A stretch of 64,000 nt of DNA. It comes from a virus. Below, one piece after another: positions 806 to 21,141 of the stretch. Numbering within the stretch: position 1 is the stretch's first letter; the number at the start of each line of letters is the position of its first letter. The stretch lies in IMG/VR virus record IMGVR_UViG_3300023440_000002, positions 44,382 through 108,381 of that record; one strand, given 5' to 3'. The notes under the pieces are model-generated. The model worked only from the letters and a program-made list of their open reading frames with translations. It did no database searches and had not been told where the DNA came from. The translations under genes were made by a program, and so were the position numbers.

Positions 806-832
806 TAAAGTTTTTCAGCAAAGATCCGATAG
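806..832 (+). promoter_or_regulatory. sigma-28 (FliA)-type promoter heading array A
   Basis: TAAAGTTT-N11-TCCGATAG versus consensus TAAAGTTT-N11-GCCGATAA; intergenic, directly upstream of array. Confidence 0.75.
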
Positions 833-878
833 GGTGTATGTAAATGGCAAGTAGCTAACCCAATAAGGGAAAACCTAG

Positions 879-1040
879 ATGGAAACTAAATCTATTGCAA
901 GTAAGGTTCACAGGAAGGTTCACGAGCAGATTCGCTGGCAGGTTTTCGGGCAGATTAACTGGGAGATTAGCAACCAGGTTGCCGATCAAATAATCAATCC
1001 AATAATCAATCCAATAAGGGATGATCTAAATGGAAACTAA
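879..1040 (+). CDS. array repeat peptide (53 aa)
   Basis: METKSIAS...NPIRDDLNGN, hand-translated. Confidence 0.75.
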   Translation: METKSIASKVHRKVHEQIRWQVFGQINWEISNQVADQIINPIINPIRDDLNGN

Positions 1041-1263
1041 AGATATTACAAAAGATGTTCGCCAGCAGGTTTACGAGCAGGTTCGCCAGGAGGTTTACGA
1101 GCAGGTTAACCGGCAGGTTCGCTGGAAGGTTGACGAGCAGATTCACTGGCAAATTCGAGATCAGGTTTACCGGCAGGTTCGCTGGCAGATTAACTGGCAG
1201 ATTAGCGATCAGGTTAACTGACAAATAACTGAACCAATAAAGGATAACCTAGATGAAAGCTAA
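1030..1263 (+). pseudogene. array unit with in-frame TGA (1219-1221) at a Trp-type position
   Basis: ...QVN*QITEPIKDNLDES*; frame intact to the family stop. Confidence 0.65.
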
Positions 1264-1378
1264 AGATATCACAAAAGAGGTTTACCGGCAGGTTCGCTGG
1301 CCGATTCTCGAGCAGGTTGCCGATCAAATAATCAATCCAATAATCAATCCAATAAGGGAAAACCTAAATGGAAGCTAA
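1253..1378 (+). CDS. array repeat peptide (41 aa)
   Basis: MKAKDITKEV...NPIRENLNGS. Confidence 0.7.
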   Translation: MKAKDITKEVYRQVRWPILEQVADQIINPIINPIRENLNGS

Positions 1379-1538
1379 AGTTATTACAAATATAACCGAT
1401 AAGATTTACAGTCAGGTTCTCAACCAGGTTAGCGACCGGATTCACGAGCAGCTTTACTGGGAGATTTACGGGCAGGTCCACGACCAGGTTCTCGGGCAAA
1501 TATCTGACCCAATAGAGGAAAACCTAGATGGAAGCTAA
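1368..1538 (+). CDS. array repeat peptide (56 aa) with embedded sigma-28 motif
   Basis: MEAKVITNITDKIY...DPIEENLDGS. Confidence 0.75.
   Translation: MEAKVITNITDKIYSQVLNQVSDRIHEQLYWEIYGQVHDQVLGQISDPIEENLDGS
1376..1402 (+). promoter_or_regulatory. sigma-28-type promoter inside array unit
   Basis: TAAAGTTA-N11-ACCGATAA. Confidence 0.65.
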
Positions 1539-1713
1539 AGTTATTACTAATAATATTTACGACCAGGTTCGCCAGAAGATTAAACAGCAGATTTTCGAGC
1601 AAGTTTATTGGCAAGTTAGCTTGCAGGTTCGCTGGTATATTAGCGATCAGATTAACCAGCAGGTTCGCGAGCAAATAGCCACCCCAATAAGGGAAAATCT
1701 AAGTGGAAACTGA
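1528..1713 (+). CDS. array repeat peptide (61 aa)
   Basis: ORF track; family caps. Confidence 0.75.
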   Translation: MEAKVITNNIYDQVRQKIKQQIFEQVYWQVSLQVRWYISDQINQQVREQIATPIRENLSGN

Positions 1714-1816
1714 AGATATTACAAAAGAGGTTCGCCGGCATATTGTCAAGCAGATTAACTTGCAGGTTCGCGATCAAGTAACTAATCCAATATGGACTGA
1801 TCTAAATGGAAACTAA
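1703..1816 (+). CDS. array repeat peptide (37 aa, GTG start)
   Basis: (M)ETEDITKEV...NPIWTDLNGN. Confidence 0.65.
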   Translation: METEDITKEVRRHIVKQINLQVRDQVTNPIWTDLNGN

Positions 1817-2012
1817 AGACGTTACAAATACAGCCGATCAGTCCCGCCGGCAGGTTCGCTGGAAGGTTGCCGATCAGGTTTTCGACCAGGTTAATGATCA
1901 GGTTAATGATCAGGTTTACTGGCAGATTAACTGGGAGATTAGCAACCAGGTTGCCGATCAAATAATCAATCCAATAATCAATCCAATAAGGGATGATCTA
2001 AATGGAAACTAA
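1806..2012 (+). CDS. array repeat peptide (68 aa)
   Basis: ORF track; near-identical to 2542..2748; TAAAGACG-N11-GCCGATCA at 1814-1840. Confidence 0.75.
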   Translation: METKDVTNTADQSRRQVRWKVADQVFDQVNDQVNDQVYWQINWEISNQVADQIINPIINPIRDDLNGN

Positions 2013-2187
2013 AGATATTACTAATGAGGTTCGCCAGCAGGTTTACTGGGAGATTCACAGTCAGGTTAACTGGCATGTTCGCAACCAGGTTCGCAACCAG
2101 GTTCGCCGGAAGGTTTTCTCGCAGATTTACGAGCAGGTTTTCGGGCAAATAACTAACCCAATAAAGGAAGATCTAGATGGAAACTGA
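2002..2187 (+). CDS. array repeat peptide (61 aa)
   Basis: ORF track; family caps. Confidence 0.75.
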   Translation: METKDITNEVRQQVYWEIHSQVNWHVRNQVRNQVRRKVFSQIYEQVFGQITNPIKEDLDGN

Positions 2188-2347
2188 AGATGTTACAGAT
2201 AAGATTTACTATCGAATTACCGGACAGGTCCGCAATCAGGTTGAGTGGCAGGTTCGCAGGCAGGTTCGTGACCAGATTATTGACCAGATTTACGACCAGA
2301 TTGACGAACAAATAGTTATCCCAATAAAGGAAAATCTAAATGACTGA
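2177..2347 (+). CDS. array repeat peptide (56 aa)
   Basis: METEDVTDKIY...IPIKENLND. Confidence 0.7.
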   Translation: METEDVTDKIYYRITGQVRNQVEWQVRRQVRDQIIDQIYDQIDEQIVIPIKENLND

Positions 2348-2552
2348 AGCTAAAGTTATTAAAAATAAGATTTACCGGCAGATTCGCGGCCAGATTTGCC
2401 GGCAGATTAACCGGCAGATTCGCTGGCAGACTCGCAGTCAGATTTGCCGGCAGATTAACTGGGATATTCGCGATCAGGTTCGCATTCAGATTTACGATCA
2501 GGCTAATGATCAAATATTTAATCCAATAAGGGATGATCTAAATGGAAACTAA
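2340..2552 (+). CDS. array repeat peptide (70 aa)
   Basis: ORF track; family caps. Confidence 0.75.
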   Translation: MTEAKVIKNKIYRQIRGQICRQINRQIRWQTRSQICRQINWDIRDQVRIQIYDQANDQIFNPIRDDLNGN

Positions 2553-2748
2553 AGATATTACAAATACAGCCGATCAGTCCCGCCGGCAGGTTCGCTGGAA
2601 GGTTGCCGATCAGATTTTCGACCAGGTTAATGATCAGGTTTACTGGCAGGTTTTCGGGCAGATTAACTGGGAGATTAGCAACCAGGTTGCCGATCAAATA
2701 ATCAATCCAATAATCAATCCAATAAGGGATGACCTAAATGGAAACTAA
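2542..2748 (+). CDS. array repeat peptide (68 aa)
   Basis: ORF track; TAAAGATA-N11-GCCGATCA at 2550-2576. Confidence 0.75.
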   Translation: METKDITNTADQSRRQVRWKVADQIFDQVNDQVYWQVFGQINWEISNQVADQIINPIINPIRDDLNGN

Positions 2749-2911
2749 AGATATTGCAAAAGAGATTCACGAGCAGGTTTACGAGCAGGTTTGCGACCAG
2801 GTTAGCGAGCAGGTTCGCCGGCAGGTTCGCCGGCAGGTTTACTGTCAGATTGGCGACCAGACTTACTGGCAAGTAACTAACCCAATAAGGGATGACCTAA
2901 ATGGAAACTGA
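2738..2911 (+). CDS. array repeat peptide (57 aa)
   Basis: METKDIAKEIHEQV...NPIRDDLNGN. Confidence 0.7.
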   Translation: METKDIAKEIHEQVYEQVCDQVSEQVRRQVRRQVYCQIGDQTYWQVTNPIRDDLNGN

Positions 2912-3113
2912 AGATATTGCAAAAGAGATTCACGAGCAGGTTGGCGAGCAGATTCGCCGGCAACTTTACGAGCAGGTTAACCGGCAGGTTCGCTGGAAGG
3001 TTGACGAGCAGATTTACTGGAAGGTTCGCTGGCAGATTCTCAACCAGGTTTCCGAGCAAATTACCAATCAGATTATCTGACAGATTCAAAACCCAATAAG
3101 GGATAACCCCTAA
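2901..3113 (+). pseudogene. last unit of array A, in-frame TGA at 3078-3080
   Basis: ...NQII*QIQNPIRDNP*. Confidence 0.6.
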
Positions 3114-3135
3114 ATAAACTAAGAAAGGAACTATT

Positions 3136-3357
3136 ATGGCAAAGCAAGAATCAACACCGTGGGATGACCTAGAAGGAAGATTGGTCAACTACAAAAAACT
3201 ACACCAGAAGAAAGCCACCGGACCACTCAAGGAAGAACTGGCTAAGGCAAAAACCCTAACTCAAGCTAGAAAGGTACTCTTCGGAGAAAAGAAGAAAAGA
3301 ATCAATTGCTCTAATTGCTCACACAAAGTTTGTGTTTGCGGGAAAACTTCCCGTTGA
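3136..3357 (+). CDS. hypothetical protein, C-terminal Cys cluster
   Basis: strong RBS AAGGAA; CxxCxxxxCxC. Confidence 0.65.
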   Translation: MAKQESTPWDDLEGRLVNYKKLHQKKATGPLKEELAKAKTLTQARKVLFGEKKKRINCSNCSHKVCVCGKTSR

Positions 3358-3365
3358 TTTTCGCA

Positions 3366-3539
3366 GTGAAGGTCAAAATAGAATCATTTGACTCGAGGTT
3401 TACTGAAATAACCCAAGACCTTTATTTCAGTAAACCTCCTAGTGAACAAGAAATAACCAAAGAGGCTTCTATTGACCCGCAAGTAAAGTGGTCATACATC
3501 GTAAAAAGAGTAATCATAATCAACAATGAAGGTATTTAA
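3366..3539 (+). CDS. hypothetical protein
   Basis: ORF 3315..3539, likely GTG start at 3366. Confidence 0.4.
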   Translation: MKVKIESFDSRFTEITQDLYFSKPPSEQEITKEASIDPQVKWSYIVKRVIIINNEGI

Positions 3540-3780
3540 CTTAATATTATGGCTTAAGGGATTGTTCTCTAAAAAGGGTATATCACACACTATTATGAAA
3601 CCCCAAGGATTTAACGCCCTTAAGCCTAGCACCCCATCTAATTGCATTTATTGCGAAAACCAATGGGAAGAATTCGACCAGCATTCTTATGAAAGATGCA
3701 GTAAATGCTTCGATCTAACCAACCTCCACCCAAGCAAAGTAACTTTAAAGAACAATAAAATCACCATTAACTTCGAGTAA
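3526..3780 (+). CDS. hypothetical zinc-finger-like protein
   Basis: CIYC...CSKC. Confidence 0.55.
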   Translation: MKVFNLILWLKGLFSKKGISHTIMKPQGFNALKPSTPSNCIYCENQWEEFDQHSYERCSKCFDLTNLHPSKVTLKNNKITINFE

Positions 3781-3784
3781 ACCC

Positions 3785-6010
3785 ATGACTAAATACGAAC
3801 AATTCAGACAATACATCGCCCAATTCCTCCAAGGCCCTAACGTAGAAGCGATACTTAATAGTTTAGCAGACGATTCAACTAAACTAGAAAACCTATCGAG
3901 ATCCGTAACAGACCAGCTAACCATATCGACAGCCTCAAGTGTTTACTTAGATAAAAGACTAGCTGACAAAGGAATAACTCGCCCACCAGAACTAGGCATG
4001 TCTGACATATCATTCCGTAAGATGGGAATACAAATAACTGCGGCTAAGCAACTAACTGGATTAATCCATACGATACTGGGCACTTTCTATGGTGAAGAAG
4101 CAGTAAGGGCTAACCTGAAGAATACTAAGACAGGACCTTACAACCTAGAAGAAGGAATGGAACTAGAGTTCGAACTAGAGGATGGTATTACTAGGGTGGT
4201 ATCATTCAAAAACACAGACTTCATAAACATCAACCAAGCTACGGCATCAGAGGTAGCATCAGTAATAACACGATTCATAAGAACACAGAACTTAGGAGCT
4301 TTTGCTAGTACAGTAAAGGACTTAAACACAGGCTTAGAGTTCATAAAGTTGTTCGGTGGAGCTGCGGGGCCATACTCAACAGTGACAGTCACAGGAGGCG
4401 AAGCTAATACAATCCTGCAATTTCCTAATATTAGAGGAACCGAGCTGTTAGTTAATGATACAGCATGGGAGATTACCCGTACCGTAGGCAGCACATTACG
4501 GTTCAGATGGGCAGGCAATTCCAAACCGGCATTAGACTTGATATTTCCAACCGACCGCGTAATGATTTACGGGCAAAGTTTTGAGTCTATTGGACTGGCC
4601 GGAACTTTTATTGTCTCAAACGTACGACCTCCACTGATCGGCCCAGACCTAGACGCAGGGTGGTTCGAGATAGAAGTCCCTGCTTTCAGTGGCTTACGTT
4701 CTACTCAGCCTGGCACAACACCCCCAACTAACGTACCACCCGACACTATCTATTCTTATACCATAGTTCAAGCCAACTGGGAAGAGCTAATGTTCATGAA
4801 GCCAGTCAAAGCTTTACCTAACCGCCAGGTGCGTTACGCCTTAGGTTGGGAGCCTAGAGGTGATTTGCTGCGAATTTATATGCCGGCAACAACTGGTATT
4901 GTCTCTAGGGGGATTGAAGGTGCAGCACACTTACATTCGCTTTACGAGGACGGTAATCTGGATGGGGCTTTCGGCTCTGTTACGGATCTTGACTCCGCAG
5001 TGGAAGTTATCTCAGATCGCATTATACGATACCGCCAACTAGGTTACGATAATCACGCTACGGGAGGAGTATTGTCTTGGGGTGGTAATGACTACGAAAT
5101 CGATTATGTCCGGCGTGAGCAATTCACCTCTACCGTATTTTTGAATGAGCCCCACGGATTGCCGGTAGTGCAAGATTCTTTCGGGCGCGACGTTTCTTTG
5201 GAAGTGGTATCTGTTGTGGTGGATATTATGCAGACAGACGATTTAGAATTCAAATCCCCCTATATGGTTGACCTAGGTAAGAACTACACCGTCAGGTCTG
5301 AGTTTGTTACTTCTCGCGCTAAGGTGTTTGCGGGTTCCACCCTGTCCACTTTGGATGTGGATGGTATTTTACCTAATGAGCCAGGGGTATTATTGTTCGA
5401 CTTAAACACCGACAAAGAAGAAGGCCCTATTCGTTATGTTGGGGTTCAGGCTCAAAACGCCCCTAACGTGGTGAATATAGTGACTATTTCCCAAAACGGG
5501 CTGAATGTTACCATTACCACAGATGCTCCTCACGGCGCTACTAGTGGCAGCAACATAGTAATATCAGGTACAACTTTCTTTGATGGGGTGTATCCCGTAG
5601 TGGGCGTACCTAACCCGACTACCATCCAAGCGATTTCCACTGTCGTCCAGGTGGAGAATGAGGTTGGGGTAGGTAGCTTGTCTGTTGTGGTGGATAATGT
5701 TCGGTCTACGTTGCTGCTCGACCCTAGCAATGAATTCAAGTTTGATCATGAAATAGGAGCTGACTTAACTTTGATGTCTTCTAGGAATGCCTACCAGCCT
5801 GCCTTAGATGGCTCAGATTACCCGTTCTACGTTACTGGGGTAGCTGAGGGTAGAGTTTTCGCTGCGGACGTCATAGAGGCTATTACGGCGTTAGGGATTA
5901 ATATCGAAATATTGATCGTCTACCCAAGCGATAAAGGCCTAGGCAACGAAGGAGGTTCAGATGGTAATGAAACCCCTGTGTCAGATAAAGTTACGGTTTG
6001 GGGTGTTTAA
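3785..6010 (+). CDS. putative baseplate wedge/tail structural protein
   Basis: 741 aa; N-terminal 'TISTASSVYLDKRLADKGITRP...DISFRK' resembles baseplate wedge (gpI/DUF2612-like) N-termini; beta-rich body with 'TITTDAPHG...IVISGT' module also repeated in the 1717-aa tail protein. Confidence 0.6.
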   Translation: MTKYEQFRQYIAQFLQGPNVEAILNSLADDSTKLENLSRSVTDQLTISTASSVYLDKRLADKGITRPPELGMSDISFRKMGIQITAAKQLTGLIHTILGTFYGEEAVRANLKNTKTGPYNLEEGMELEFELEDGITRVVSFKNTDFININQATASEVASVITRFIRTQNLGAFASTVKDLNTGLEFIKLFGGAAGPYSTVTVTGGEANTILQFPNIRGTELLVNDTAWEITRTVGSTLRFRWAGNSKPALDLIFPTDRVMIYGQSFESIGLAGTFIVSNVRPPLIGPDLDAGWFEIEVPAFSGLRSTQPGTTPPTNVPPDTIYSYTIVQANWEELMFMKPVKALPNRQVRYALGWEPRGDLLRIYMPATTGIVSRGIEGAAHLHSLYEDGNLDGAFGSVTDLDSAVEVISDRIIRYRQLGYDNHATGGVLSWGGNDYEIDYVRREQFTSTVFLNEPHGLPVVQDSFGRDVSLEVVSVVVDIMQTDDLEFKSPYMVDLGKNYTVRSEFVTSRAKVFAGSTLSTLDVDGILPNEPGVLLFDLNTDKEEGPIRYVGVQAQNAPNVVNIVTISQNGLNVTITTDAPHGATSGSNIVISGTTFFDGVYPVVGVPNPTTIQAISTVVQVENEVGVGSLSVVVDNVRSTLLLDPSNEFKFDHEIGADLTLMSSRNAYQPALDGSDYPFYVTGVAEGRVFAADVIEAITALGINIEILIVYPSDKGLGNEGGSDGNETPVSDKVTVWGV

Positions 6011-6170
6011 GATCTCCCCTTATCAGGTTAGCTACTTGCCAGCTAACCTGCCAGTGAACCCGGTTGCTAGTCTGACGTTGAATATGCCAGTAAACCTGTC
6101 CGCTAACCTGCTCGTAAACCTGCCGGTAAATCTGCTCGCGAATCTTATTAGCAATATCATTAGTTTTCAT
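5991..6170 (-). CDS. array repeat peptide (terminal unit; overlaps baseplate gene end)
   Basis: MKTNDIANK...NLIRGDLKHPKP. Confidence 0.7.
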   Translation of the reverse strand: MKTNDIANKIREQIYRQVYEQVSGQVYWHIQRQTSNRVHWQVSWQVANLIRGDLKHPKP

Positions 6171-6357
6171 CGATATCATCCTTTATTTGGTTAGCTACTT
6201 GCCAGCTAATCTGCTCGAGAATCGGCCAGCGAACCTGCCTTCTAATCTTATTGCTAACCTGCCAGCGGACCTGCCAGTGAACCTGCCAGATAACCTGCCA
6301 GTAAATCTGCTCGCGAACCTGCTGGCGAATCTCTTTTGCAATATCATTAGTTTCCAC
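6160..6357 (-). CDS. array repeat peptide
   Basis: ORF track. Confidence 0.75.
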   Translation of the reverse strand: METNDIAKEIRQQVREQIYWQVIWQVHWQVRWQVSNKIRRQVRWPILEQISWQVANQIKDDIDEN

Positions 6358-6520
6358 TTAGGTCGCTCCATATTGGATCAGTTATTTGCAGGCGAACCTG
6401 CTCGCAAGCCTGCCGGTGAACCTGCCATCCAACCTGCCAGCTAACCTGCTCGATAACCTGCTCGAGAATCTGCTCGTAAATCTGCTCGCGAATCTTACTT
6501 GTAATATCATTAGTTTCCAT
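6347..6520 (-). CDS. array repeat peptide (57 aa)
   Basis: hand-translated, open frame. Confidence 0.7.
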   Translation of the reverse strand: METNDITSKIREQIYEQILEQVIEQVSWQVGWQVHRQACEQVRLQITDPIWSDLSGN

Positions 6521-6707
6521 TCAGATTATCCCTTATTGGGTTGGCTATTTGCTGGCCAACTTGGTCGATAATCCGGTCGCTAACCTGCCGGTAAACCTGC
6601 TCGATAACCTTCCAGTAAACCTGGTCGTCAATCTGCTCGAGAATATGCCAGCAAACCTGATCGTAAACCTCCTGGCGAATCTCTTTTGCAATATCATTAG
6701 TTTCCAC
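6510..6707 (-). CDS. array repeat peptide
   Basis: ORF track. Confidence 0.75.
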   Translation of the reverse strand: METNDIAKEIRQEVYDQVCWHILEQIDDQVYWKVIEQVYRQVSDRIIDQVGQQIANPIRDNLNGN

Positions 6708-6891
6708 TTAGGTCGCTCCATATTGGGTTGGCTATTTGCTCTTGAACCTGCCAGTAAACCTGGTCGTTAACCTTCCAGTAAACCTGTCCGCTAACCTGCT
6801 CGTAAACCTGTCGGTAAATCTGCTCGCGAACCTGATCGATAACCTGCCCTCGAACCTGCTGGCGAATCTCTTTTGCAATATCTTCAGTCAT
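6697..6891 (-). CDS. array repeat peptide
   Basis: ORF track, start MTED. Confidence 0.75.
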   Translation of the reverse strand: MTEDIAKEIRQQVRGQVIDQVREQIYRQVYEQVSGQVYWKVNDQVYWQVQEQIANPIWSDLSGN

Positions 6892-7018
6892 ATAGATCAT
6901 CCTTGATTGGATTAGCTACTTGCAGGCGAACCTGCTCGTAAACCCGCCAGTTAATCTGGTCGTCAATATGGCCGTAAATCTTCCAGCGAATTTCTTTTGT
7001 AATACCTTTAGCTTTCAT
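6884..7018 (-). CDS. array repeat peptide (44 aa)
   Basis: hand-translated, open frame. Confidence 0.7.
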   Translation of the reverse strand: MKAKGITKEIRWKIYGHIDDQINWRVYEQVRLQVANPIKDDLYD

Positions 7019-7193
7019 TAAGGTTATCCTTTATTGGGTTAGCTATTTGATCGAAAACCTGGTCGATAACCTGCCCGCTAACCTGGTCGTCAATCTGCTC
7101 GAGAATATGCCAATAAGCCTGGTCGTTAACCTGCCCCAGAACCTGCTGGCGAACCTGCCAACGAACCTCATTAGTAATAACTTTAGCTTTCAT
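7008..7193 (-). CDS. array repeat peptide
   Basis: ORF track. Confidence 0.75.
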   Translation of the reverse strand: MKAKVITNEVRWQVRQQVLGQVNDQAYWHILEQIDDQVSGQVIDQVFDQIANPIKDNLNES

Positions 7194-7341
7194 CTAGGTC
7201 GCTCCATATTGGATCAGTTATTTGCAGGCGAACCTGGTCTCGAATCTCCCAGTGAACCTGCTCGATAACCTGCAAGTTAATTTGCTTGACAATATGCAGG
7301 TAAGCCTTCCAGCTAATCTCTTTTGCAATATCTTCAGTCAT
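7183..7341 (-). CDS. array repeat peptide (52 aa)
   Basis: hand-translated, open frame. Confidence 0.7.
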   Translation of the reverse strand: MTEDIAKEISWKAYLHIVKQINLQVIEQVHWEIRDQVRLQITDPIWSDLDES

Positions 7342-7525
7342 TTAGGTTTTCCTTTATTGGGTTAGTTATTTGCCAGCTAACCTGCTCGAGAATCTGCCAA
7401 TTAACCTGCTCGATAACCTGCCAGTAAACCTGTTCGATAACCTGCCGGCGGATCTGGTTGCGAACCTGCCCGCTAACCTGGTCGTCAATCTGACAGTAAA
7501 CTTGCCAGCTAATATCTTCAGTCAT
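7334..7525 (-). CDS. array repeat peptide
   Basis: ORF track. Confidence 0.75.
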   Translation of the reverse strand: MTEDISWQVYCQIDDQVSGQVRNQIRRQVIEQVYWQVIEQVNWQILEQVSWQITNPIKENLND

Positions 7526-7700
7526 TTAGGTTATCCTTTATTGGGTCAGATATTTGATCATGAACCTGCCATCCAATCTGCCATCCAATCTGCCGGAAAA
7601 CCTGCCAGTAAACCTGTCGGCGAACCTTCCAGAGAGCTTGGTCGTTAACCTGATCATTAACCTGCCGGTGAACATCTTTTGCAATATCTTCAGTTTCCAT
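7518..7700 (-). CDS. array repeat peptide
   Basis: ORF track. Confidence 0.75.
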   Translation of the reverse strand: METEDIAKDVHRQVNDQVNDQALWKVRRQVYWQVFRQIGWQIGWQVHDQISDPIKDNLND

Positions 7701-7851
7701 TTAGGTTATCCTTTATTGGGTCAGATATTTGATCATGAACCTGCCATCCAATCTGCCATCCAATCTGCCGGAGAGCCTGGTCGTTAATCTGCCAGTAAAT
7801 CTGTTGGTGAATCTGCTGGTGAATCTCATTAGTAATATCTTTAGCTTTCAT
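7690..7851 (-). CDS. array repeat peptide (53 aa)
   Basis: hand-translated, open frame. Confidence 0.7.
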   Translation of the reverse strand: MKAKDITNEIHQQIHQQIYWQINDQALRQIGWQIGWQVHDQISDPIKDNLNGN

Positions 7852-8002
7852 CTAGGTCTTCCCATATTGGATTAGCTATTTGCTCGAAAACCTGCTCGTA
7901 AACCTGCCGGCGAACCTGGTCGTAAACCTGCCCGCGAATCTGCCAGTAAATCTCCCAGTAAACCTGCCAGTTAACCTCTTTTGTGATATCTTCAGATTCC
8001 AT
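7841..8002 (-). CDS. array repeat peptide (53 aa)
   Basis: hand-translated, open frame. Confidence 0.7.
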   Translation of the reverse strand: MESEDITKEVNWQVYWEIYWQIRGQVYDQVRRQVYEQVFEQIANPIWEDLDES

Positions 8003-8213
8003 TTAGATCTACCTTTATTGGGGTGGCTATTTGATTGCGAACCTGCTCGTAAACCTGCCGGCGAACCTGGTCGCAAACCTGCCCGCGAATCTGCCAGTAA
8101 ATCTCCCAGTAAACCTGATCATTAATCTGCCAGTGAAGCTTCCAGTGAACCTGGCCGTTAATCTGCTCTCGAACCTGCTGGCGAATCTCATTAGTAATAT
8201 CTTCAGCTTTCAT
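7992..8213 (-). CDS. array repeat peptide
   Basis: ORF track. Confidence 0.75.
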   Translation of the reverse strand: MKAEDITNEIRQQVREQINGQVHWKLHWQINDQVYWEIYWQIRGQVCDQVRRQVYEQVRNQIATPIKVDLNGI

Positions 8214-8325
8214 CTAGGTCATCCATTATTGGGGTGGCTATTTGATTGCGAACCTGGTCGCTAACCTGCCGACCTTACTTTACATAAACCTTATCGGTTA
8301 TGTCTGTAATAACTTTAGCTTTCAC
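8203..8325 (-). pseudogene. promoter-type array unit (stop at codon 17)
   Basis: (M)KAKVITDITDKVYVK*; carries TAAAGTTA-N11-ACCGATAA at 8291-8317. Confidence 0.7.
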
Positions 8326-8500
8326 TTAGGTCTCCACCTATTAGGTTACGAACCTGCCGGCGAACCTGCCAGTGAACCGGCAGGTTAATTTGCTCGACAA
8401 TATGCAAGTAAGTCTTCCAGCTAGTCTGCTGGTTAACCTGCTGATGGATCTTCCAGTGAATCTGCCGGCGAATCTCTTTTGTAGTATCTTTAGTTTCCAT
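8315..8500 (-). CDS. array repeat peptide
   Basis: ORF track. Confidence 0.75.
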   Translation of the reverse strand: METKDTTKEIRRQIHWKIHQQVNQQTSWKTYLHIVEQINLPVHWQVRRQVRNLIGGDLSES

Positions 8501-8612
8501 TGAGATTTTCCTTTATTGGGTCAGTTATTTGATTGCGAGCTTGATCGTCAATTTGCCGACCTTACTTTACATAAACCTTATCGGCTATATCTGTAATAAC
8601 TTTAGTTTCCAT
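8490..8612 (-). pseudogene. promoter-type array unit (stop at codon 17)
   Basis: METKVITDIADKVYVK*; carries TAAAGTTA-N11-GCCGATAA at 8578-8604. Confidence 0.7.
8578..8604 (-). promoter_or_regulatory. near-consensus sigma-28 promoter inside array
   Basis: TAAAGTTA-N11-GCCGATAA (one mismatch to consensus). Confidence 0.75.
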
Positions 8613-8787
8613 GCAGATCTTCCCTTATTGGTTCAGTTATTTGCCCATGAACCTGGTCGTGAACTTGCCAGTTAATTTGATCGAGAATCTGGCCGTGAAC
8701 CTGGTCGCCAATCTGCTGATAAACACCCCGGCTAATCTGATCATTAATCTGCTGGTGAATCTTACCTATAATATCTTCAGTTTTCAT
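8602..8787 (-). CDS. array repeat peptide
   Basis: ORF track. Confidence 0.75.
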   Translation of the reverse strand: MKTEDIIGKIHQQINDQISRGVYQQIGDQVHGQILDQINWQVHDQVHGQITEPIREDLHGN

Positions 8788-8962
8788 TAAGATCTTCCCA
8801 TATTGGGTCAGTTATTTGCAGGCGAACCTCCCAGTAAGTCTGGTCGCCAATCTGCCAGTAAACCTGCCGGCGAACCTGCTCGAGAACATGGCCGCGAATC
8901 TGATGGTAAATCTCCCAATCAACCTGCCAGTGAATCTTACTTGTAATATCTTTAGTTTTCAT
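8777..8962 (-). CDS. array repeat peptide
   Basis: ORF track. Confidence 0.75.
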   Translation of the reverse strand: MKTKDITSKIHWQVDWEIYHQIRGHVLEQVRRQVYWQIGDQTYWEVRLQITDPIWEDLNEN

Positions 8963-9125
8963 TTAGGTCTACCTTTATTGGAGAGGTTGTTTGCCAGCGA
9001 ACCTGCATATCAACCTGATCTAGAATCTGCCGCTGAATCTGCCAGCGAACCTGATAGTGAACCTGATCTCGAATTTGCCAGTAAATCTGCCAGTTAACCT
9101 CTTTTGTAATATCTTTAGTTTTCAT
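8952..9125 (-). CDS. array repeat peptide
   Basis: ORF track, start MKTK. Confidence 0.75.
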   Translation of the reverse strand: MKTKDITKEVNWQIYWQIRDQVHYQVRWQIQRQILDQVDMQVRWQTTSPIKVDLNEN

Positions 9126-9408
9126 CGAGGTCATCCTTTATTGGGTCGGATATTTGATTGTAAACCTGATTGTGAACCTGATCTAGAATCTGCCAGTAAG
9201 CCTGCCAGTAAGTCTGCCCGCTAGCCTGGCCTTTAATACGCTCGAGAATCTGGCCGTGAACCTCCCAGTGAACCTGATCGTAAATATGCCCGCTAGCCTG
9301 CTGGCCAACCTGATTGGTAATTTGATCGTCAACCTGCTCGTCAACCTGCCAGTAAATCTGTTGACTAATCTGATTATGTACCTTGTCGGCTATATCTTTA
9401 GTTTTCAT
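9115..9408 (-). CDS. array repeat peptide (97 aa, longest unit)
   Basis: ORF track. Confidence 0.8.
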   Translation of the reverse strand: MKTKDIADKVHNQISQQIYWQVDEQVDDQITNQVGQQASGHIYDQVHWEVHGQILERIKGQASGQTYWQAYWQILDQVHNQVYNQISDPIKDDLDEN

Positions 9409-9607
9409 TTAGGTCATCCTTTATTGGGTTAGCTACTTGCTGGTGAACCTGCTCGTGAACCCGCCAGTAAACCTCCTCGTAAGTCTCCTCGTAAACCTCC
9501 CAATAAACACAATCGTAAAGATGCTTGCTAACCTTATCGAGAATCTGATTGCGAACCTGCCAGTGAATCTCATCGTGAATCTTACCTGTAATACCATCAG
9601 CTTCCAT
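9398..9607 (-). CDS. array repeat peptide
   Basis: ORF track. Confidence 0.75.
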   Translation of the reverse strand: MEADGITGKIHDEIHWQVRNQILDKVSKHLYDCVYWEVYEETYEEVYWRVHEQVHQQVANPIKDDLNEN

Positions 9608-9770
9608 CTAAGTCTTCCTTTATTGGGATGGTTATTTGCCAGCGAATCTGATCGCGAACATGCCAGTTAACCTTCCAGCGAACCTGCTCGAGAATCTCCC
9701 AGTCAACCTGCTCGCTAACCTTCCAGCGAATCTGACTGTAAATCTTACTTGCTATATCTTCAATTTTCAT
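9597..9770 (-). CDS. array repeat peptide (57 aa)
   Basis: hand-translated, open frame. Confidence 0.7.
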   Translation of the reverse strand: MKIEDIASKIYSQIRWKVSEQVDWEILEQVRWKVNWHVRDQIRWQITIPIKEDLDGS

Positions 9771-9981
9771 TTAGGTCATCCTTTATTGGGTCGGATATTT
9801 GATTGTAAGCCTGCTCGTGAACATGCTGGCGAACCTGCCGGTTAACCTGCTCGTAAACCTCCCAGCTAACCTGGTCGCAAATCTGCTCGAAAACCTGGTC
9901 GCGAATCTCCCAGTGAATACCCCAATGAACCTGGTCGTAAACCTGCGAGCGAACATCTTTTGTAATATCTTTAGTTTTCAT
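9760..9981 (-). CDS. array repeat peptide
   Basis: ORF track, start MKTK. Confidence 0.75.
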   Translation of the reverse strand: MKTKDITKDVRSQVYDQVHWGIHWEIRDQVFEQICDQVSWEVYEQVNRQVRQHVHEQAYNQISDPIKDDLNEN

Positions 9982-10156
9982 CGAGGTCATCCTTTATTGG
10001 AGAGGTTGTTTGCCGGCGAACCTTACCGTGAATCAGCCAATTAACCTGTTCGCGAATCTGACTGTAAACCTGCCAGTGAACCTGCTCGTAAATCTGCCAG
10101 TGAGCGTGACTGACAATTCGATTGTGAATTTTGTCGGCTATATCTTTAGTTTTCAT
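9971..10156 (-). CDS. array repeat peptide
   Basis: ORF track, start MKTK. Confidence 0.75.
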   Translation of the reverse strand: MKTKDIADKIHNRIVSHAHWQIYEQVHWQVYSQIREQVNWLIHGKVRRQTTSPIKDDLDEN

Positions 10157-10331
10157 CGAGGTCATCCTTTATTGGGTTAGCTACTTGCTCGTGAACCTGA
10201 TTGTGAACCTGATCTAGAATCTGCTCGCTAATCTGCTTGCGAACCTCCCAGTAAGCCTCCCAGCGAATACCCCAATGAACCTGGTCGTAAACCTGCTTAT
10301 AAACCTTATTTGCGGCAATTTTAGCTTCCAT
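10146..10331 (-). CDS. array repeat peptide
   Basis: ORF track. Confidence 0.75.
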   Translation of the reverse strand: MEAKIAANKVYKQVYDQVHWGIRWEAYWEVRKQISEQILDQVHNQVHEQVANPIKDDLDEN

Positions 10332-10494
10332 TTAGTTCATCCCTTATTGGGTTGGCTATTTGATTTCGAATTTGCCTATGAATCTGCTTGCGAACCTCCC
10401 AGTAAACCTCCCAGCGAACCTGCAAGTTAATCTGCTTGACAATATGCAGGTAAACCTCCCAGCTAATCTCTTTTGTAATATCATTAGTTTCCAT
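10321..10494 (-). CDS. array repeat peptide (57 aa)
   Basis: hand-translated, open frame. Confidence 0.7.
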   Translation of the reverse strand: METNDITKEISWEVYLHIVKQINLQVRWEVYWEVRKQIHRQIRNQIANPIRDELNGS

Positions 10495-10657
10495 CTAGAT
10501 CTTCCTTTATTGGGTTAAGTATTTGATCACGAATCTGCCAGTTAACCCTCGAGTAAGCCCTCCAATAAACCAAATAATCAACCTGCTCGCGAACTTGCCA
10601 GTAAATCTTCCGGTAAACCTGCTGGCGAATCTCATTAGTAATATCTTCAATTTCCAT
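10484..10657 (-). CDS. array repeat peptide (57 aa)
   Basis: hand-translated, open frame. Confidence 0.7.
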   Translation of the reverse strand: MEIEDITNEIRQQVYRKIYWQVREQVDYLVYWRAYSRVNWQIRDQILNPIKEDLDGN

Positions 10658-10832
10658 TTAGGTCTTCCCATATTGGATCAACTCCTTGCTCACGAACTTG
10701 AGCGTAAATCTGCCAGTAAATCTGCCAGCGAACCTTCCGGTTAACTTTCTCGTGAATATGATTGATAGTCTGCCGGCGAATCTGCTGGCGAACCTGGTCG
10801 TGAATCTCTTTTGTAATATCTTCAGTTTCCAT
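10647..10832 (-). CDS. array repeat peptide
   Basis: ORF track. Confidence 0.75.
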   Translation of the reverse strand: METEDITKEIHDQVRQQIRRQTINHIHEKVNRKVRWQIYWQIYAQVREQGVDPIWEDLNGN

Positions 10833-11007
10833 TTAGGTCATTCCTTATTGGGTCGATTATCTGTACGTGAACCTGCCAGCGAACATGCAAGCGAACATGC
10901 TCGAGAATCTTCCAGTAGGGGTTCCGGCCAACCTGATCAACGACCTGCTCTCGAACCTGGTCGTAAACCTGCTTATAAACCTTATTTGCGGCAACTTTAG
11001 CTTTCAT
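10822..11007 (-). CDS. array repeat peptide
   Basis: ORF track. Confidence 0.75.
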   Translation of the reverse strand: MKAKVAANKVYKQVYDQVREQVVDQVGRNPYWKILEHVRLHVRWQVHVQIIDPIRNDLNGN

Positions 11008-11179
11008 TTAGATCTTCCTTTATTGGGATAACTATTTGCCCGCGAATTTGATCGTTAATCTGCTCGTTAATCTGTTCGCGAACCTGCCCTCGAACCTGCC
11101 AATAAGTCTGCCAGTCAACCTTCCAACTAATCTCGCTACACACCTTATCGGTTATACCTGTAATAACTTTAGCTTTCAT
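10997..11179 (-). CDS. array repeat peptide with embedded sigma-28 motif
   Basis: ORF track; TAAAGTTA-N11-ACCGATAA at 11145-11171. Confidence 0.75.
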   Translation of the reverse strand: MKAKVITGITDKVCSEISWKVDWQTYWQVRGQVREQINEQINDQIRGQIVIPIKEDLNES

Positions 11180-11191
11180 TTAGATCTTCCT

Positions 11192-11734
11192 TTATTCGCT
11201 CAAATACACAGCACCATCAACAAAACCCGGAGCTATCTTGTCCAGGTACTCTCTATTCATATAGGTTTGGTTCTTGATTAGTTCTTTATAATTCGGAGGG
11301 TTAAATATCTTATTGATCTCTTTATGAATAAAAACATTATCTTTAATTGTCTTTTTAGAATCTTCCATTGTTACAATACATCGAGACGGACAATAATAAT
11401 ACAAGTTATGCATCATCATTGTTGCTTTTGGCGTTAAGTGCCTGGTATCACACAAGGTTGAAATATAAAAGGCCATACTTAGGGCTTTCTTAATCAGGCA
11501 ATGAACTTTAAACCCTCTCTTTTTAATGTCCTGAATTGAAGCCCCTAGCTGAAAAAAAGGCGTAACCGGCCCTCCAGGACTGTCAATTGTTAAATAAACA
11601 TCCCGATGGGTCAACCTAATATAAACTGCCAACGCAGATGCCGACATAGAATCGGTAAGCTTTAGTTTAGATACTTCACTAGCTGAAACCTGACTAGGCA
11701 ACAGGATCATTAAAATTAAAAGTAAGTATTTCAT
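11192..11734 (-). CDS. ClpP-like (S14) serine peptidase with signal peptide
   Basis: IDSPGG, catalytic Ser in ALSMA, His in MMMH; hydrophobic leader MKYLLLILMILLPSQVSA; RBS AAGGAA. Confidence 0.75.
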   Translation of the reverse strand: MKYLLLILMILLPSQVSASEVSKLKLTDSMSASALAVYIRLTHRDVYLTIDSPGGPVTPFFQLGASIQDIKKRGFKVHCLIKKALSMAFYISTLCDTRHLTPKATMMMHNLYYYCPSRCIVTMEDSKKTIKDNVFIHKEINKIFNPPNYKELIKNQTYMNREYLDKIAPGFVDGAVYLSE

Positions 11735-11748
11735 ATTGTTCCTTTCTG

Positions 11749-11811
11749 TTAGGGTTTAATCTCTATTCCATTAACCTTATCGGCTATATCTGCAATATCT
11801 TTAGTTTCCAT
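11749..11811 (-). pseudogene. truncated promoter-type unit upstream of ClpP-like gene
   Basis: METKDIADIADKVNGIEIKP*; TAAAGATA-N11-GCCGATAA at 11777-11803. Confidence 0.65.
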
Positions 11812-11974
11812 TTAGATCTACCTTTATTGGTTCAGTTATTTGCTGGTCAACCTGGTCGCAAACCTGCCAGTGAATATGCCAGTCAACCTGCCAGCGAATC
11901 TCCCAGTGAGCCTGGTCATTAATCTGACGGTCAACCTCCTGACGAATCTTTTTTGTAATATCTTTAGTTTCCAT
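11801..11974 (-). CDS. array repeat peptide (57 aa)
   Basis: hand-translated, open frame. Confidence 0.7.
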   Translation of the reverse strand: METKDITKKIRQEVDRQINDQAHWEIRWQVDWHIHWQVCDQVDQQITEPIKVDLNGN

Positions 11975-12161
11975 TTAGGTCTTCCTTTATTGGGAGGGTT
12001 ATTCGGTCGTCAATCTTTAAGTGGATCTCCCAGAGAACCTCCCGGCGAATCTTCCGACTAATCTGCTCATCAACCTGCTCATCAACCTGCTTATAAGTTT
12101 GGTTGTCAATCTGCAAGCGAACCTGCTCGATAACCTCATTAGTGATATCTTTAGTTTTCAT
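11964..12161 (-). CDS. array repeat peptide
   Basis: ORF track; near-copy of 12477..12662. Confidence 0.75.
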   Translation of the reverse strand: MKTKDITNEVIEQVRLQIDNQTYKQVDEQVDEQISRKIRREVLWEIHLKIDDRITLPIKEDLNGN

Positions 12162-12324
12162 CTAGGTTTTCCTTTATTGGGTTAGCTACTTGCTCGTGAA
12201 CCTGCTCGTCAACATTCCAGTAAATCTCCCGGCTCACCCCCCTGTCAACCTGCCGGTTAATCTGCCAATAAACCTGATCGCTAATCTCCCGACGAATTTT
12301 ATTACCAGTATCTTCAGCTTTCAT
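12151..12324 (-). CDS. array repeat peptide (57 aa)
   Basis: hand-translated, open frame. Confidence 0.7.
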   Translation of the reverse strand: MKAEDTGNKIRREISDQVYWQINRQVDRGVSREIYWNVDEQVHEQVANPIKENLDEN

Positions 12325-12487
12325 CTAGATCATCCTTTATTGGGTTAGCTACTTGCTCGTGAACCCGCCAGTAAACCTGCCTGTGAACCTTCCAGCGAAC
12401 CTGCCCTCTAGCCTGCCAATTAATCTGTTTGTGAACCTTCCAGCGAACCTGCTCGTCAAACTCTTTTGTAATATCTTTAGCTTCCAT
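12314..12487 (-). CDS. array repeat peptide (57 aa)
   Basis: hand-translated, open frame. Confidence 0.7.
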   Translation of the reverse strand: MEAKDITKEFDEQVRWKVHKQINWQARGQVRWKVHRQVYWRVHEQVANPIKDDLDES

Positions 12488-12662
12488 CTAGGTCTTCCTT
12501 TATTGGGAGGGTTATTTGCTCGTCAATCTTTAAGTGGATCTCCCAGAGAACCTCCCGGCGAATCTTCCGACTAACCTGCCAACAAACCTGCTCATCAACC
12601 TGCTTATAAGTTTGGTTGTCAATCTGCAAGCGAACTTTATTACCAATATCTTTAGCTTCCAT
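12477..12662 (-). CDS. array repeat peptide
   Basis: ORF track. Confidence 0.75.
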   Translation of the reverse strand: MEAKDIGNKVRLQIDNQTYKQVDEQVCWQVSRKIRREVLWEIHLKIDEQITLPIKEDLDGS

Positions 12663-12837
12663 CTAGGTCTTCCTTTATTGGGTCGAATACTTGATTGTAA
12701 ACCTGGTCGTGAACCTGTCGGCGAACCTGTCGGTGAACCTGCCATCCAACCTGCCGGAGAACCTGACAGTTAGCCTGCCAGCTAACCTGCCAGCTAACCT
12801 GCCAGCTAACCTTTTTTATAATACCTTTAGTTTCCAT
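12652..12837 (-). CDS. array repeat peptide
   Basis: ORF track. Confidence 0.75.
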   Translation of the reverse strand: METKGIIKKVSWQVSWQVSWQANCQVLRQVGWQVHRQVRRQVHDQVYNQVFDPIKEDLDGS

Positions 12838-13024
12838 CTAGGTCTTCCTTTATTGGATTAGTTATTTGCTCGAAAACCTGGTCGCAAACCTGCCCGCGAA
12901 TCTGCCAGTAAATCTCCCAGTAAAACTGATCATCAATCTGCCAGTGAACCTGGCCGCGAATCTGCCAGTAAACCTGGTCGTCAACCTCCCGACGAATCTT
13001 TTTTATAATACCTTTAGTTTCCAT
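12827..13024 (-). CDS. array repeat peptide
   Basis: ORF track. Confidence 0.75.
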   Translation of the reverse strand: METKGIIKKIRREVDDQVYWQIRGQVHWQIDDQFYWEIYWQIRGQVCDQVFEQITNPIKEDLDGN

Positions 13025-13187
13025 CTAGGTCTTCCCTTATTGGATTGGTTATTTGACCGAAAACCTGCAAGAGAGCATGCAAGCGAACATGCAAGCGAAC
13101 CTTCCAATAAATCTGCCAGTCATCCTGCCAGTTAACCTGCTCGAGAATCTGGTCGCGAATCTCTTTTATAGTATCACTAGCTTCCAT
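13014..13187 (-). CDS. array repeat peptide (57 aa)
   Basis: MEASDTIKEIRDQI...NPIREDLDGN. Confidence 0.7.
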   Translation of the reverse strand: MEASDTIKEIRDQILEQVNWQDDWQIYWKVRLHVRLHALLQVFGQITNPIREDLDGN

Positions 13188-13386
13188 CTAGGTTTTCCTT
13201 TATTGGGTCGGTTATTTGCTCGAAAACCTGGTCGTAAACCTGTCGGCGAATATGCCGGCGAACCTGCCATTCAATCTGCCCTCGAACCTGCCATCCAACC
13301 TGCCGGAGAACCTGACAGTTAGCCTGCCAGCTAACCTGCCCGCGAACCTGTTCGATAACCTCTTTTGCAATATCTTTAGCTTCCAT
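13177..13386 (-). CDS. array repeat peptide
   Basis: ORF track. Confidence 0.75.
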   Translation of the reverse strand: MEAKDIAKEVIEQVRGQVSWQANCQVLRQVGWQVRGQIEWQVRRHIRRQVYDQVFEQITDPIKENLDGS

Positions 13387-13564
13387 TTAGGTCTACCATT
13401 ATTGGGTTAGTTATTTGTGTGCGGATTTTACTGTAAGTACTCCAGCTGACCTGCATGTTAACTTCTTTTCGAGCGTTCCAATCAAAAACACTGCAAGCGG
13501 GTAGATTAGACAGATTAGCAATCTCATCAGTAATACCCAACCGTAAATCAATTATGTCTGTCAT
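13376..13564 (-). CDS. divergent array family member
   Basis: C-terminus QITNPIMVDLNGS matches family cap; N-half diverged. Confidence 0.65.
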   Translation of the reverse strand: MTDIIDLRLGITDEIANLSNLPACSVFDWNARKEVNMQVSWSTYSKIRTQITNPIMVDLNGS

Positions 13565-14276: not shown

Positions 14277-14303
14277 TTATCGGTTGACTTGCGAAAAACT
14301 TTA
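14277..14303 (-). promoter_or_regulatory. sigma-28-type promoter heading array B operon
   Basis: TAAAGTTT-N11-ACCGATAA. Confidence 0.8.
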
Positions 14304-14359
14304 GCCTAATATTAACATAGAAGAAAGTGAGTTGTTTTGCTAATTTAAAGGCCATATAT

Positions 14360-18063: not shown

Positions 18064-18091
18064 TTATCGGTTGTTTTTGGCTAAATCTTTA
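18064..18091 (-). promoter_or_regulatory. sigma-28-type promoter
   Basis: TAAAGATT-N12-ACCGATAA overlapping end of upstream CDS. Confidence 0.55.
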
Positions 18092-18540
18092 GCTTTAGTT
18101 GCGCTTTTCCAAAAAATTATAATAGCTTCTTTGTCTGCCAGTAAAAAAGAGGTGTAATGACTCCTATAAACCGACTCTAGATTCAACAGGGCTTTATCTG
18201 TTATGTTGACGTACTCCTCTTCTGGAATCGTATCAAGCATATAAGCCAACATACTTCCGGCTTTATATGTATCTATCGTCGCCCCGCTAGACCATTTGCC
18301 GGTTAAGGTAGCTCTTGAGTATAAAGCTATAAGCCGGCTAAATCTAGCCCCTTCGGTTTTTGCTTTTCTGGTTTTGTTTGTTTTAGTTTTAAGCTTATCG
18401 ACTAGTTCGTCGTAAGTGAAATTAAAGAAAATGTCCGTTACTTCACCTAATTCGGTGACCACTGGAGAATCCACAGGCGCTTCCAAGCTAAGAATATCCC
18501 CTTTTCTTAGTGTTACTTTTCTTCCTTCTGTTGCTTTCAT
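18064..18540 (-). CDS. hypothetical protein
   Basis: ORF track. Confidence 0.65.
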   Translation of the reverse strand: MKATEGRKVTLRKGDILSLEAPVDSPVVTELGEVTDIFFNFTYDELVDKLKTKTNKTRKAKTEGARFSRLIALYSRATLTGKWSSGATIDTYKAGSMLAYMLDTIPEEEYVNITDKALLNLESVYRSHYTSFLLADKEAIIIFWKSATKAKDLAKNNR

Positions 18541-18542
18541 GG

Positions 18543-18905
18543 CTAATCTCCGTAAACTGACGAACTACTGAAGAAAAAATCCCGCATCTTTTCTTTTTCG
18601 GTTGGTTCGTTTTCTGACTCTGTGAAGCCCTCTACGGCTTGGAACTGACTGGAATCAGCTCTTCTTATTAAGTCCATAAAGGTCGAATAAGTTACTTCTG
18701 GTTTGGGGCATGTCGAAAAATAATCATCGATGTTTCGACTTATTATGTCGAAACCTTCATCGGCCGCATTGACTTCTAGCCAAGCCCCCAAAGAAGGAGC
18801 TATCACTCTAACGTGATCTAAATCTTTCGTTAGTTCTTTAATTTGACCTATTCTTTCTGGCGCTGACAAAACAGACAGCCAAACCTTGCATTCTTTCATT
18901 TTCAT
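18543..18905 (-). CDS. hypothetical protein
   Basis: ORF track; C-terminus identical to 19390..19773. Confidence 0.65.
   Translation of the reverse strand: MKMKECKVWLSVLSAPERIGQIKELTKDLDHVRVIAPSLGAWLEVNAADEGFDIISRNIDDYFSTCPKPEVTYSTFMDLIRRADSSQFQAVEGFTESENEPTEKEKMRDFFFSSSSVYGD
18544..18603. repeat. 60-bp direct repeat, copy 1 (copy 2 at 19391-19450)
   Basis: exact match, encodes TEKEKMRDFFFSSSSVYGD. Confidence 0.9.
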
Positions 18906-19099: not shown

Positions 19100-19115
19100 T
19101 AACTCCTTATTGTTC

Positions 19116-19143
19116 TTATCGGGTGTTCGGTGAGAAAACTTTA
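19116..19143 (-). promoter_or_regulatory. sigma-28-type promoter
   Basis: TAAAGTTT-N12-CCCGATAA, intergenic. Confidence 0.7.
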
Positions 19144-19153
19144 GCTAAAAACT

Positions 19154-19387: not shown

Positions 19388-19389
19388 GG

Positions 19390-19924: not shown

Positions 19925-19925
19925 C

Positions 19926-21131: not shown

Positions 21132-21141
21132 AACTAACCCT

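Follow-up and report, generated by a model that had tools for sequence, protein, structure and literature searches.

Organization of the minigene arrays

The window (the whole 64,000-nt stretch of DNA analyzed) comes from an uncultured large phage, whose record spans 108 kb and is 68% complete. It contains two arrays of short tandem genes, comprising about 55 minigenes together, as well as genes for a ClpP-like and a sigma-70-family protein:

879–3080, plus strand: array of 14 overlapping minigenes with xQ[V/I]x tetrads
5991–13564, minus strand: array of about 43 minigenes
11192–11734, minus strand: ClpP-like gene, 180 aa, with a signal-peptide-like N-terminus (PF00574, E 1.1e-5)
49818–50837, minus strand: sigma-70-family protein, 339 aa, stopping before region 4.2

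The minus-strand array belongs to an operon in which the promoter at 14303 is followed by four small genes and then by the minigenes. The ClpP-like gene, the sole foreign gene in the array, fills the place of a unit body, with a promoter-bearing head on one side and a unit-type junction on the other. The antisense strand also has open NLPxNL frames, but as these have neither regular starts nor ribosome-binding sites, it was rejected as the coding strand. No terminator-like sites were found within the arrays, which show no enrichment of sigma-70-like promoters or terminators.

The unit profile, which gives 61 matches on the phage's own genome as a positive control, was searched together with DNA patterns of unit junctions and heads against viral and metagenome contigs, and no homologous arrays were found; the profile likewise found none in relatives G007-G010. 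A protein database search returned only nine short QV-repeat proteins, mostly distant and from other DNA. A helicase search found no close relatives, and a sigma search of contigs yielded one 17-kb contig lacking the promoter motif. The phage also encodes a GroEL, for which no relative was found in bacterial genomes, and no tRNA genes were found in the phage record.

A promoter motif upstream of phage genes

The leader of the plus-strand array at 806 and five copies within the arrays (1376, 8317, 8604, 11171 and 11803) fit the pattern TAAAGTT(T/A)-N11-RCCGATA(A/G). Exact matches to this pattern number 13 in the 108-kb record, against none for the reversed control, and no shuffle of the window equalled the observed motif count. 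The exact 11-nt spacing reported in the initial annotation holds for the gap between the 8-mer -35 and the 8-mer -10, following the sigma-28 convention, and corresponds to 14 nt counted from the end of TAAAG. All 12 non-array sites have the -35 element TAAA(GTTT), as do the five strong copies of the arrays; it takes the form TAAAGTTA or TAAAGATA in array heads. The -10 element GCCGATAA is also present, and reads RCCGATA(A/G) in the strong copies. Every array copy has a spacing of N11; of the non-array sites, 9 (representing 8 different sequences) have N11 and 3 have N12.

At eleven motif sites outside the array, a start codon with a ribosome-binding site follows on the same strand, 47–102 nt downstream. 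The non-array promoters include:

806–843, plus strand: leader promoter of the plus-strand array, with -35, N11, -10 and then a leader box matching at 10/11 positions (28.3 bits)
14277–14303, minus strand: intergenic promoter heading the minus-strand operon (34.6 bits)
18064–28403, minus strand: six more non-array promoters, starting at 18091, 19143, 22981, 25756, 27189 and 28403

The last six precede genes for small membrane proteins, a lipoprotein, an RNA ligase and a phosphatase. Most likely, judging from these positions, the motif represents the working promoter class of the phage, which would head both arrays (806 and 14303) and at least 10 other transcription units. In the 806 leader, the leader box precedes a remnant unit tail, which is the source of the ribosome-binding site for unit 879; the unit profile matches this leader at 818–886, with one stop inside.

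Motif copies inside the arrays

Seven motif copies had been proposed within array units, and all were found at the positions given, along with two heads carrying a -10-like box at a different spacing:

1376–1402, plus strand: strong motif in codons 3–12 of full-length unit 1368–1538 (31.8 bits)
1814–1840, plus strand: weak copy with a poor -35, in unit 1806–2012 (13.3 bits)
2550–2576, plus strand: moderate copy in unit 2542–2748 (23.2 bits)
8275–8325, minus strand: putative promoter-only cassette with a 16-codon head, motif at 8291–8317, leader box 11/11 and an in-frame TAA (32.3 bits)
8562–8612, minus strand: second putative promoter-only cassette, 16 codons, motif at 8578–8604, leader box 11/11 and the same stop (27.0 bits)
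11145–11171, minus strand: strong motif in the head of full-length unit 10997–11179 (32.3 bits)
11749–11811, minus strand: truncated 20-codon unit head, motif at 11777–11803, leader box 9/11 (25.6 bits)
9379–9408, minus strand: head KDIADK, with a GCCGAC box 2 nt past a -35-like 8-mer, equivalent to a promoter-bearing head minus 9 nt
10127–10156, minus strand: second head with a -10-like box at spacing 2

Scores were obtained with a matrix trained on non-array sites only and scanned over the 108-kb record, where it recovers the array copies (the 1814 copy at only 13.3 bits) and no other sites, the best background match being 17.8 bits. Of the seven copies, five are strong (25.6–32.3 bits, scores that intergenic sites also reach and that exceed the background maximum), 2550 is moderate and 1814 is weak. 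The latter two, which have CCGATCA as the -10 and score lower, belong to the near-duplicate units 1806 and 2542. Unit heads are bimodal, those other than the motif copies scoring at most 4.2 bits. The -35-like TAAAG, described earlier as present in most heads, occurs in 30/54, a majority rather than nearly all of them.

Units 1368 and 11179 are full length and have the usual ribosome-binding site and start codon, so that the motif lies within a translated frame. Unit 10997–11179 is the first unit past the inserted ClpP-like gene, and the truncated head 11811 lies 43 nt upstream of that gene. From the array motif copies the next start codon is 69–188 nt away, and when the six cassettes are aligned, the columns that do not vary are those of the two promoter boxes. 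Sequence comparison confirmed that units 8325 and 8612 have a common block, stop at codon 17 and resemble the 806 leader. In cassette 8325 a short unit tail after the TAA runs to the start of unit 8213.

A box, GGTTTAWGTAA, lies downstream of the -10 in the three truncated units and in the 806 leader (11/11 positions at 8317 and 8604, 10/11 at 806 and 9/11 at 11803; random 11-mers match at 9 or more positions at a rate of 0.0005), and the in-frame stop of units 8325 and 8612 is formed by the bases directly after it. Because distant relatives (G007 and G009) carry this box at their intergenic promoters, as do other phages (L015, L044 and L145), the truncated units and the 806 leader are recognizable as canonical promoter modules.

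Codon choice in motif-bearing heads

Synonymous resampling of the array heads, using the array's own codon usage, showed that the observed codons give the maximum attainable promoter score, which is reached by a fraction of 0.0004–0.0014 of resamplings per head (0.0004 for unit 1368). Minority codons are used in the motif, namely ACC (12%), GCC (23%) and ATA (27%). All array copies have the same 3-codon (9-nt) insertion and could go back to one variant head, so that the statistics for individual heads are not independent, and the agreement of codons with the motif maximum represents one or a few independent events.

Proposed function and alternative explanations

The phage motif resembles the class 3 flagellar and chemotaxis promoters recognized by sigma-28 (FliA of E. 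coli and Salmonella, SigD of B. subtilis), having the same boxes, the 11-nt spacing and 15/16 consensus positions. Its letters and spacing agree with E. coli FliA promoters such as tar and tsr, which are listed together with flxA in PMC4183435. Unlike class 3 flagellar promoters, those of the phage precede accessory, RNA-repair and minigene-array genes, and have an additional conserved box just past the -10.

We favor, at a probability of roughly 60%, the reading that this promoter class is of the sigma-28 type, that the array copies provide additional entry points for RNA polymerase, and that the reader is the host sigma-28 holoenzyme. The promoter would be carried in the first 12 codons of full-length units 1368 and 11179, and by the bodiless cassettes 8325, 8612 and 11811. 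Transcripts would start about 7 nt past the -10 box, and the ribosome-binding site in a unit tail would then allow translation of the next unit or, at 11811, of the ClpP-like gene. A head would gain or lose promoter competence by an in-frame 9-nt indel, which shifts the -10-like box between spacings of 2 and 11. The initial annotation viewed interspersed promoter-bearing and promoter-only units as re-initiating transcription along the array. The 11 intergenic copies, the optimal codons and the leader box argue for a sigma-28-type promoter, with promoter-bearing and promoter-only units interspersed, while the lack of terminator-like sites in the arrays makes added entry points a better fit than re-initiation after termination, and leaves the need for internal promoters not obvious.

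Alternatively, the promoters may be real but read by a phage-encoded factor, either the 339-aa sigma acting together with a partner or the product of a gene from the third of the genome that the record lacks, which is possible though on balance unlikely. The phage does encode a sigma-70-family protein, a similar gene (342 aa) is present in relative G007, where the motif occurs 8 times, and a divergent sigma or other factor could sit in the missing 32%. Against this, the phage protein aligns solely to sigma-70 residues 374–570, with no region 4 match found, region 4.2 being the part of sigma that reads -35 elements, and its score is nearer to RpoD than to FliA. Moreover, Mx1 and G001 have homologous sigmas and zero motif copies, while the complete records G003, G005 and G008, with 3–5 motif sites each, gave no Sigma70_r2 match. 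Since the phage sigma lacks region 4.2 and complete motif-bearing phages have no detectable sigma, a host sigma-28, assuming that the host has one, appears the likelier reader.

It is also conceivable, although we consider it rather doubtful, that one head came to resemble a promoter by chance and was spread by duplication and recombination, its copies being silent or their transcripts useless. The 9-nt insertion common to all seven copies points to such a single origin, the near-duplication of units 1806 and 2542 fits such spreading, re-initiation is not needed without internal terminators, and most intragenic FliA promoters of E. coli are not conserved. Chance resemblance accounts less well for codons at the maximum for the motif, for the three bodiless cassettes that retain both boxes together with the leader box of relatives' intergenic promoters, and for one copy being placed 43 nt ahead of the ClpP-like gene, the array's only foreign gene.

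A bolder extension of the entry-point reading, to which we give a low probability, is that the heads are evolvable promoters. By in-frame 9-nt slippage between spacing 2 (the silent heads 9408 and 10156) and spacing 11 (active), the phage could make and erase entry points anywhere in the 55-gene library while leaving the frames intact, and the unit family itself may descend from a promoter-leader-ribosome-binding-site module. The stronger form of this last idea, in which the minigene family was born from such a module with an opened frame and every head is a decayed promoter, is improbable. The standard head resembles a -35 region, the 806 leader is a promoter joined to a unit tail, and in phage L015 several small genes in a row are each preceded by one promoter module; but the 806 leader could equally be a unit minus its body, no minigene units were found in relatives having the module, and inferring the direction would take homologous arrays. 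The earlier suggestion that the family grew from a promoter-ribosome-binding-site cassette is speculative, the unit-tail remnant at 806 fitting either direction of descent.

Titration of sigma-28 holoenzyme by the -35-like half-sites of unit heads, also suggested initially on the basis of the many TAAAG-bearing heads, is very improbable, as heads without a -10 box total at most 4.2 bits, both promoter elements are required for stable sigma-28 binding, and the half-site amounts to codons for T/A-K-D/V-I.

Comparison with known systems

A FliA promoter that constrains an overlapping protein is known from the motA promoter within flhC (Fitzgerald et al., bioRxiv 10.1101/188474). As in that case, the sigma-28-type promoter of the phage arrays would be embedded in codons, drive the gene that follows and limit which codons and residues can be used. 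The two cases differ in that the phage promoter is present in several copies, placed in the N-terminal codons of paralogous minigenes that lie in tandem, and some of these copies are no longer coding. The ClpP-like gene, lying behind its own promoter copy in the array, is reminiscent of moron-type insertions, in which a gene arrives with its own promoter. In contrast to morons, the gene has a unit head as its promoter and a unit tail at its 3' junction, so that it replaces a unit body rather than being inserted between genes, and no terminator follows it. Literature searches for sigma-28 promoters in phages gave no relevant result, and no paper was found that describes a phage minigene library wired to the motility sigma factor of its host. 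The new element is the apparent dual coding of a sigma-28-type promoter inside a minigene array.

The extended promoter-leader box can be used to search metagenomes for this phage lineage. Should the internal copies be active, the arrays would be a compact natural example of bases shared by promoter and protein code in a family of repeated genes, one in which the intermediates can be seen as full units, silent heads and promoter-only cassettes. Expression of this highly unusual minigene library, and of the RNA-repair and envelope genes of the phage, would in that case also be tied to the motility sigma factor of the host.

The phage and its minigene arrays

The source record (IMG/VR, 108,381 bp, ~40% G+C), of which the window covers bases 44382-108381, has an estimated completeness of 68%, leaving a third of the genome missing, and derives from a large tailed phage encoding GroEL, an SbcC-like nuclease, DNA polymerase, tail-fibre genes, a helicase and a sigma-like gene. 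About 57 overlapping minigenes (units) of 37-97 codons each, made of xQ[V/I]x tetrads, lie in two convergent arrays, in which the tail of the preceding unit encodes the ribosome-binding site and start codon of each minigene:

879-3080, plus strand, plus array of overlapping minigenes
13564-5991, minus strand, minus array of overlapping minigenes

The array units matched no Pfam family, and no homologous array was found in viral and metagenome contigs, searched with the unit profile and with junction and head DNA patterns, or in the relatives G007-G010, searched with the unit profile. A DUF6745 protein is encoded just upstream of the window. At the end of a 73-aa gene after the plus array, a terminator-like hairpin with a T-rich tail (3338-3354, plus strand) may close array transcripts ahead of a 741-aa structural-like gene.

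A sigma-28-type promoter class

Outside the arrays, a bipartite motif has 11 copies, of which four precede the window and seven fall inside it:

14303, head of the minus-strand operon running into the array
18091, minus strand
19143
22981
25756, minus strand
27189
28403

All 11 sites are co-oriented with a start codon bearing a ribosome-binding site, located 47-102 nt downstream, and the genes behind them include those for an RNA ligase, a metallophosphatase, a lipoprotein, small membrane proteins and the DUF6745 protein mentioned above. A further copy, at 806, heads the plus array. A reversed-pattern control gave 0 matches in the whole record. The motif consensus equals, in letters and in geometry, that of the E. 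coli FliA promoters (e.g. tar, tsr) used as reference (PMC4183435). On sequence evidence, the motif represents a genuine promoter class of this phage.

An identical ~100-nt module of promoter plus leader (minus strand, 25690-25790 and 27125-27225) precedes the genes for a 664-aa lipoprotein and the RNA ligase, and looks like a duplicated promoter cassette. The RNA ligase (26290-27111, minus strand) and a calcineurin-like phosphoesterase (27598-28338, minus strand), each with its own sigma-28-type promoter upstream, are a possible RNA-repair pair. Non-array promoters overlap coding sequence too: one (18064-18091, minus strand) lies in the last codons of an upstream 158-aa gene, and the -35 box of promoter 25756 contributes its TAA (25754-25756, minus strand) as the stop codon of an upstream 179-aa gene. 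Among 7-mers, intergenic DNA is most enriched in a second motif, TAATATTAGG, which has a palindromic core and is present in 11 of the 35 intergenic regions outside the arrays (14304-14313 in the window; genome 42833-42839 and 23425, ahead of the window). It adjoins the -35 box of promoters 14303 and genome 42841, and may represent another class of promoter or else an operator, perhaps serving the region-4-less sigma of the phage.

Predicted promoters in unit heads

Sigma-28 promoters within genes are known; new here is a predicted promoter encoded within the head codons of paralogous minigenes in tandem, alongside silent and promoter-only variants. All seven array copies reported in the initial annotation (1376, 1814 and 2550 on the plus strand; 8291-8317, 8578-8604, 11145-11171 and 11777-11803 on the minus strand) are present where it placed them, and its 11-nt spacing holds between the two 8-mers, as for sigma-28 promoters. 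TAAAG is found in 30 of 54 unit heads.

A weight matrix trained on ten different non-array sequences only was used to scan both strands of the whole record. Hits of at least 23 bits comprised the training sites, the 806 leader, array copies and nothing else (32.3 bits for 11171 and 8317, 31.8 for 1376, 27.0 for 8604, 25.6 for 11803 and 23.2 for 2550); the top background hit reached 17.8 bits. Scores over the 54 unit heads were bimodal, with 1814 at 13.3 bits and the remaining heads at 4.2 or below. When synonymous codons were redrawn across the 14 N-terminal residues of every head from the array's own codon usage, the observed codons of the five strong heads (1376, 8317, 8604, 11171, 11803) gave the maximum attainable motif score, reached by 0.04-0.14% of draws, and the better -35 TAAAGTT was present in 4/5 strong versus 4/49 other heads (Fisher p = 0.001). 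These figures do not count as independent, since a single 3-codon insertion is common to all copies, which may represent one head lineage. The -10 box requires ACC or GCC together with ATA, minority codons in the array (12%, 23%, 27%).

Promoter-bearing heads are three codons longer than standard heads. That of the truncated unit 11811 carries D-I-A in two tandem copies, and heads 10156 and 9408 (KDIADK) differ from it only in lacking one of the 9-nt copies; their GCCGAC box lies 2 nt past the -35-like 8-mer, versus 11 nt in head 11811. From this difference we infer that a single in-frame slippage would switch the promoter geometry on or off.

Promoter-only cassettes and the leader box

The reading frames of units 8325 and 8612 are only 16 codons long, and that of unit 11811 is 20. 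The block described as common to 8325 and 8612 is identical from the -10 box through the in-frame TAA at codon 17, and its likeness to the 806 leader was borne out. On alignment of these three units and 806 with the two full-length promoter units (1368, 11179), only the columns of the two promoter boxes are invariant.

A motif scan of IMG/VR revealed clustered copies in many phages, some of which encode proteins 31-45% identical to proteins of this phage. Copies in relatives were as follows:

G007, 136.8 kb, 8 motif copies
G008, 5 motif copies
G009, 2 motif copies

At intergenic promoters of G007, G009 and the IMG/VR loci L015, L044 and L145, a conserved box, GGTTTAWGTAA, directly follows the -10. 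In the window this box is matched 11/11 at 8317 and 8604, 10/11 at 806 and 9/11 at 11803, and 5/11 in the full-length promoter units, where those bases must encode protein; among random 11-mers, a fraction of 0.0005 match at 9 or more positions. We therefore take the truncated cassettes to be canonical promoter-plus-leader modules of the phage lineage. The box (window 833-843, 8280-8290, 8567-8577; L129-L132, L015, L044, L145) is conserved across phages otherwise barely related, and could mark the start site, form an RNA 5' element or bind a regulator.

Immediately 3' of the box come the bases holding the stop of 8325 and 8612, and the leaders of two relatives, L132 and L015, continue similarly there. 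Cassette 11811 lies 43 nt ahead of a ClpP-like gene, which takes the position of a unit body and has a unit-type junction at its 3' end. A unit profile search also picked out the remains of a unit tail in the 806 leader. In L015 (8100-9560), three near-identical promoter-leader modules each precede one of three consecutive genes for small secreted or membrane proteins.

Which sigma factor reads the promoters

The phage's own sigma (339 aa; 49818-50837, minus strand) matches only one named phage, Myxococcus phage Mx1 (36% identity), with which the helicase-sigma gene order is also shared. The protein covers regions 2-4.1 without region 4.2, its N-terminal 120 residues have no match, and homologues of similar length occur in Mx1 and G007. 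It scores nearer RpoD than FliA and aligns to E. coli sigma-70 residues 374-570 only, thus ending before the region 4.2 helix that reads -35 elements; no region 4 hit was obtained in it or in the next gene. There is no motif copy in Mx1 or contig G001, both with homologous sigmas, and no Sigma70_r2 match in three complete phage records carrying 3-5 motif copies each. Together, these results make host sigma-28 the likelier reader, to which we give a probability of about 0.6 for a record lacking a third of its genome. No paper was found on phages run from sigma-28-type promoters.

Proposed role of the internal promoters

The initial annotation suggested that internal promoters re-initiate transcription along the array. 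No terminator-like sites were found inside the arrays on the coding strands, so the internal copies would supply extra transcripts instead of restoring terminated ones; additional entry points fit this better than re-initiation after termination. From their coordinates, the putative entry points of the minus array (14303, 11803, 11171, 8604, 8317) split the minus operon into three stretches of 2.3-2.6 kb, one of 0.63 kb containing the ClpP-like gene, and one of 0.29 kb containing one unit. A transcript begun inside unit N would be unable to encode unit N, and its leader would be the tail of unit N, supplying the ribosome-binding site for unit N+1.
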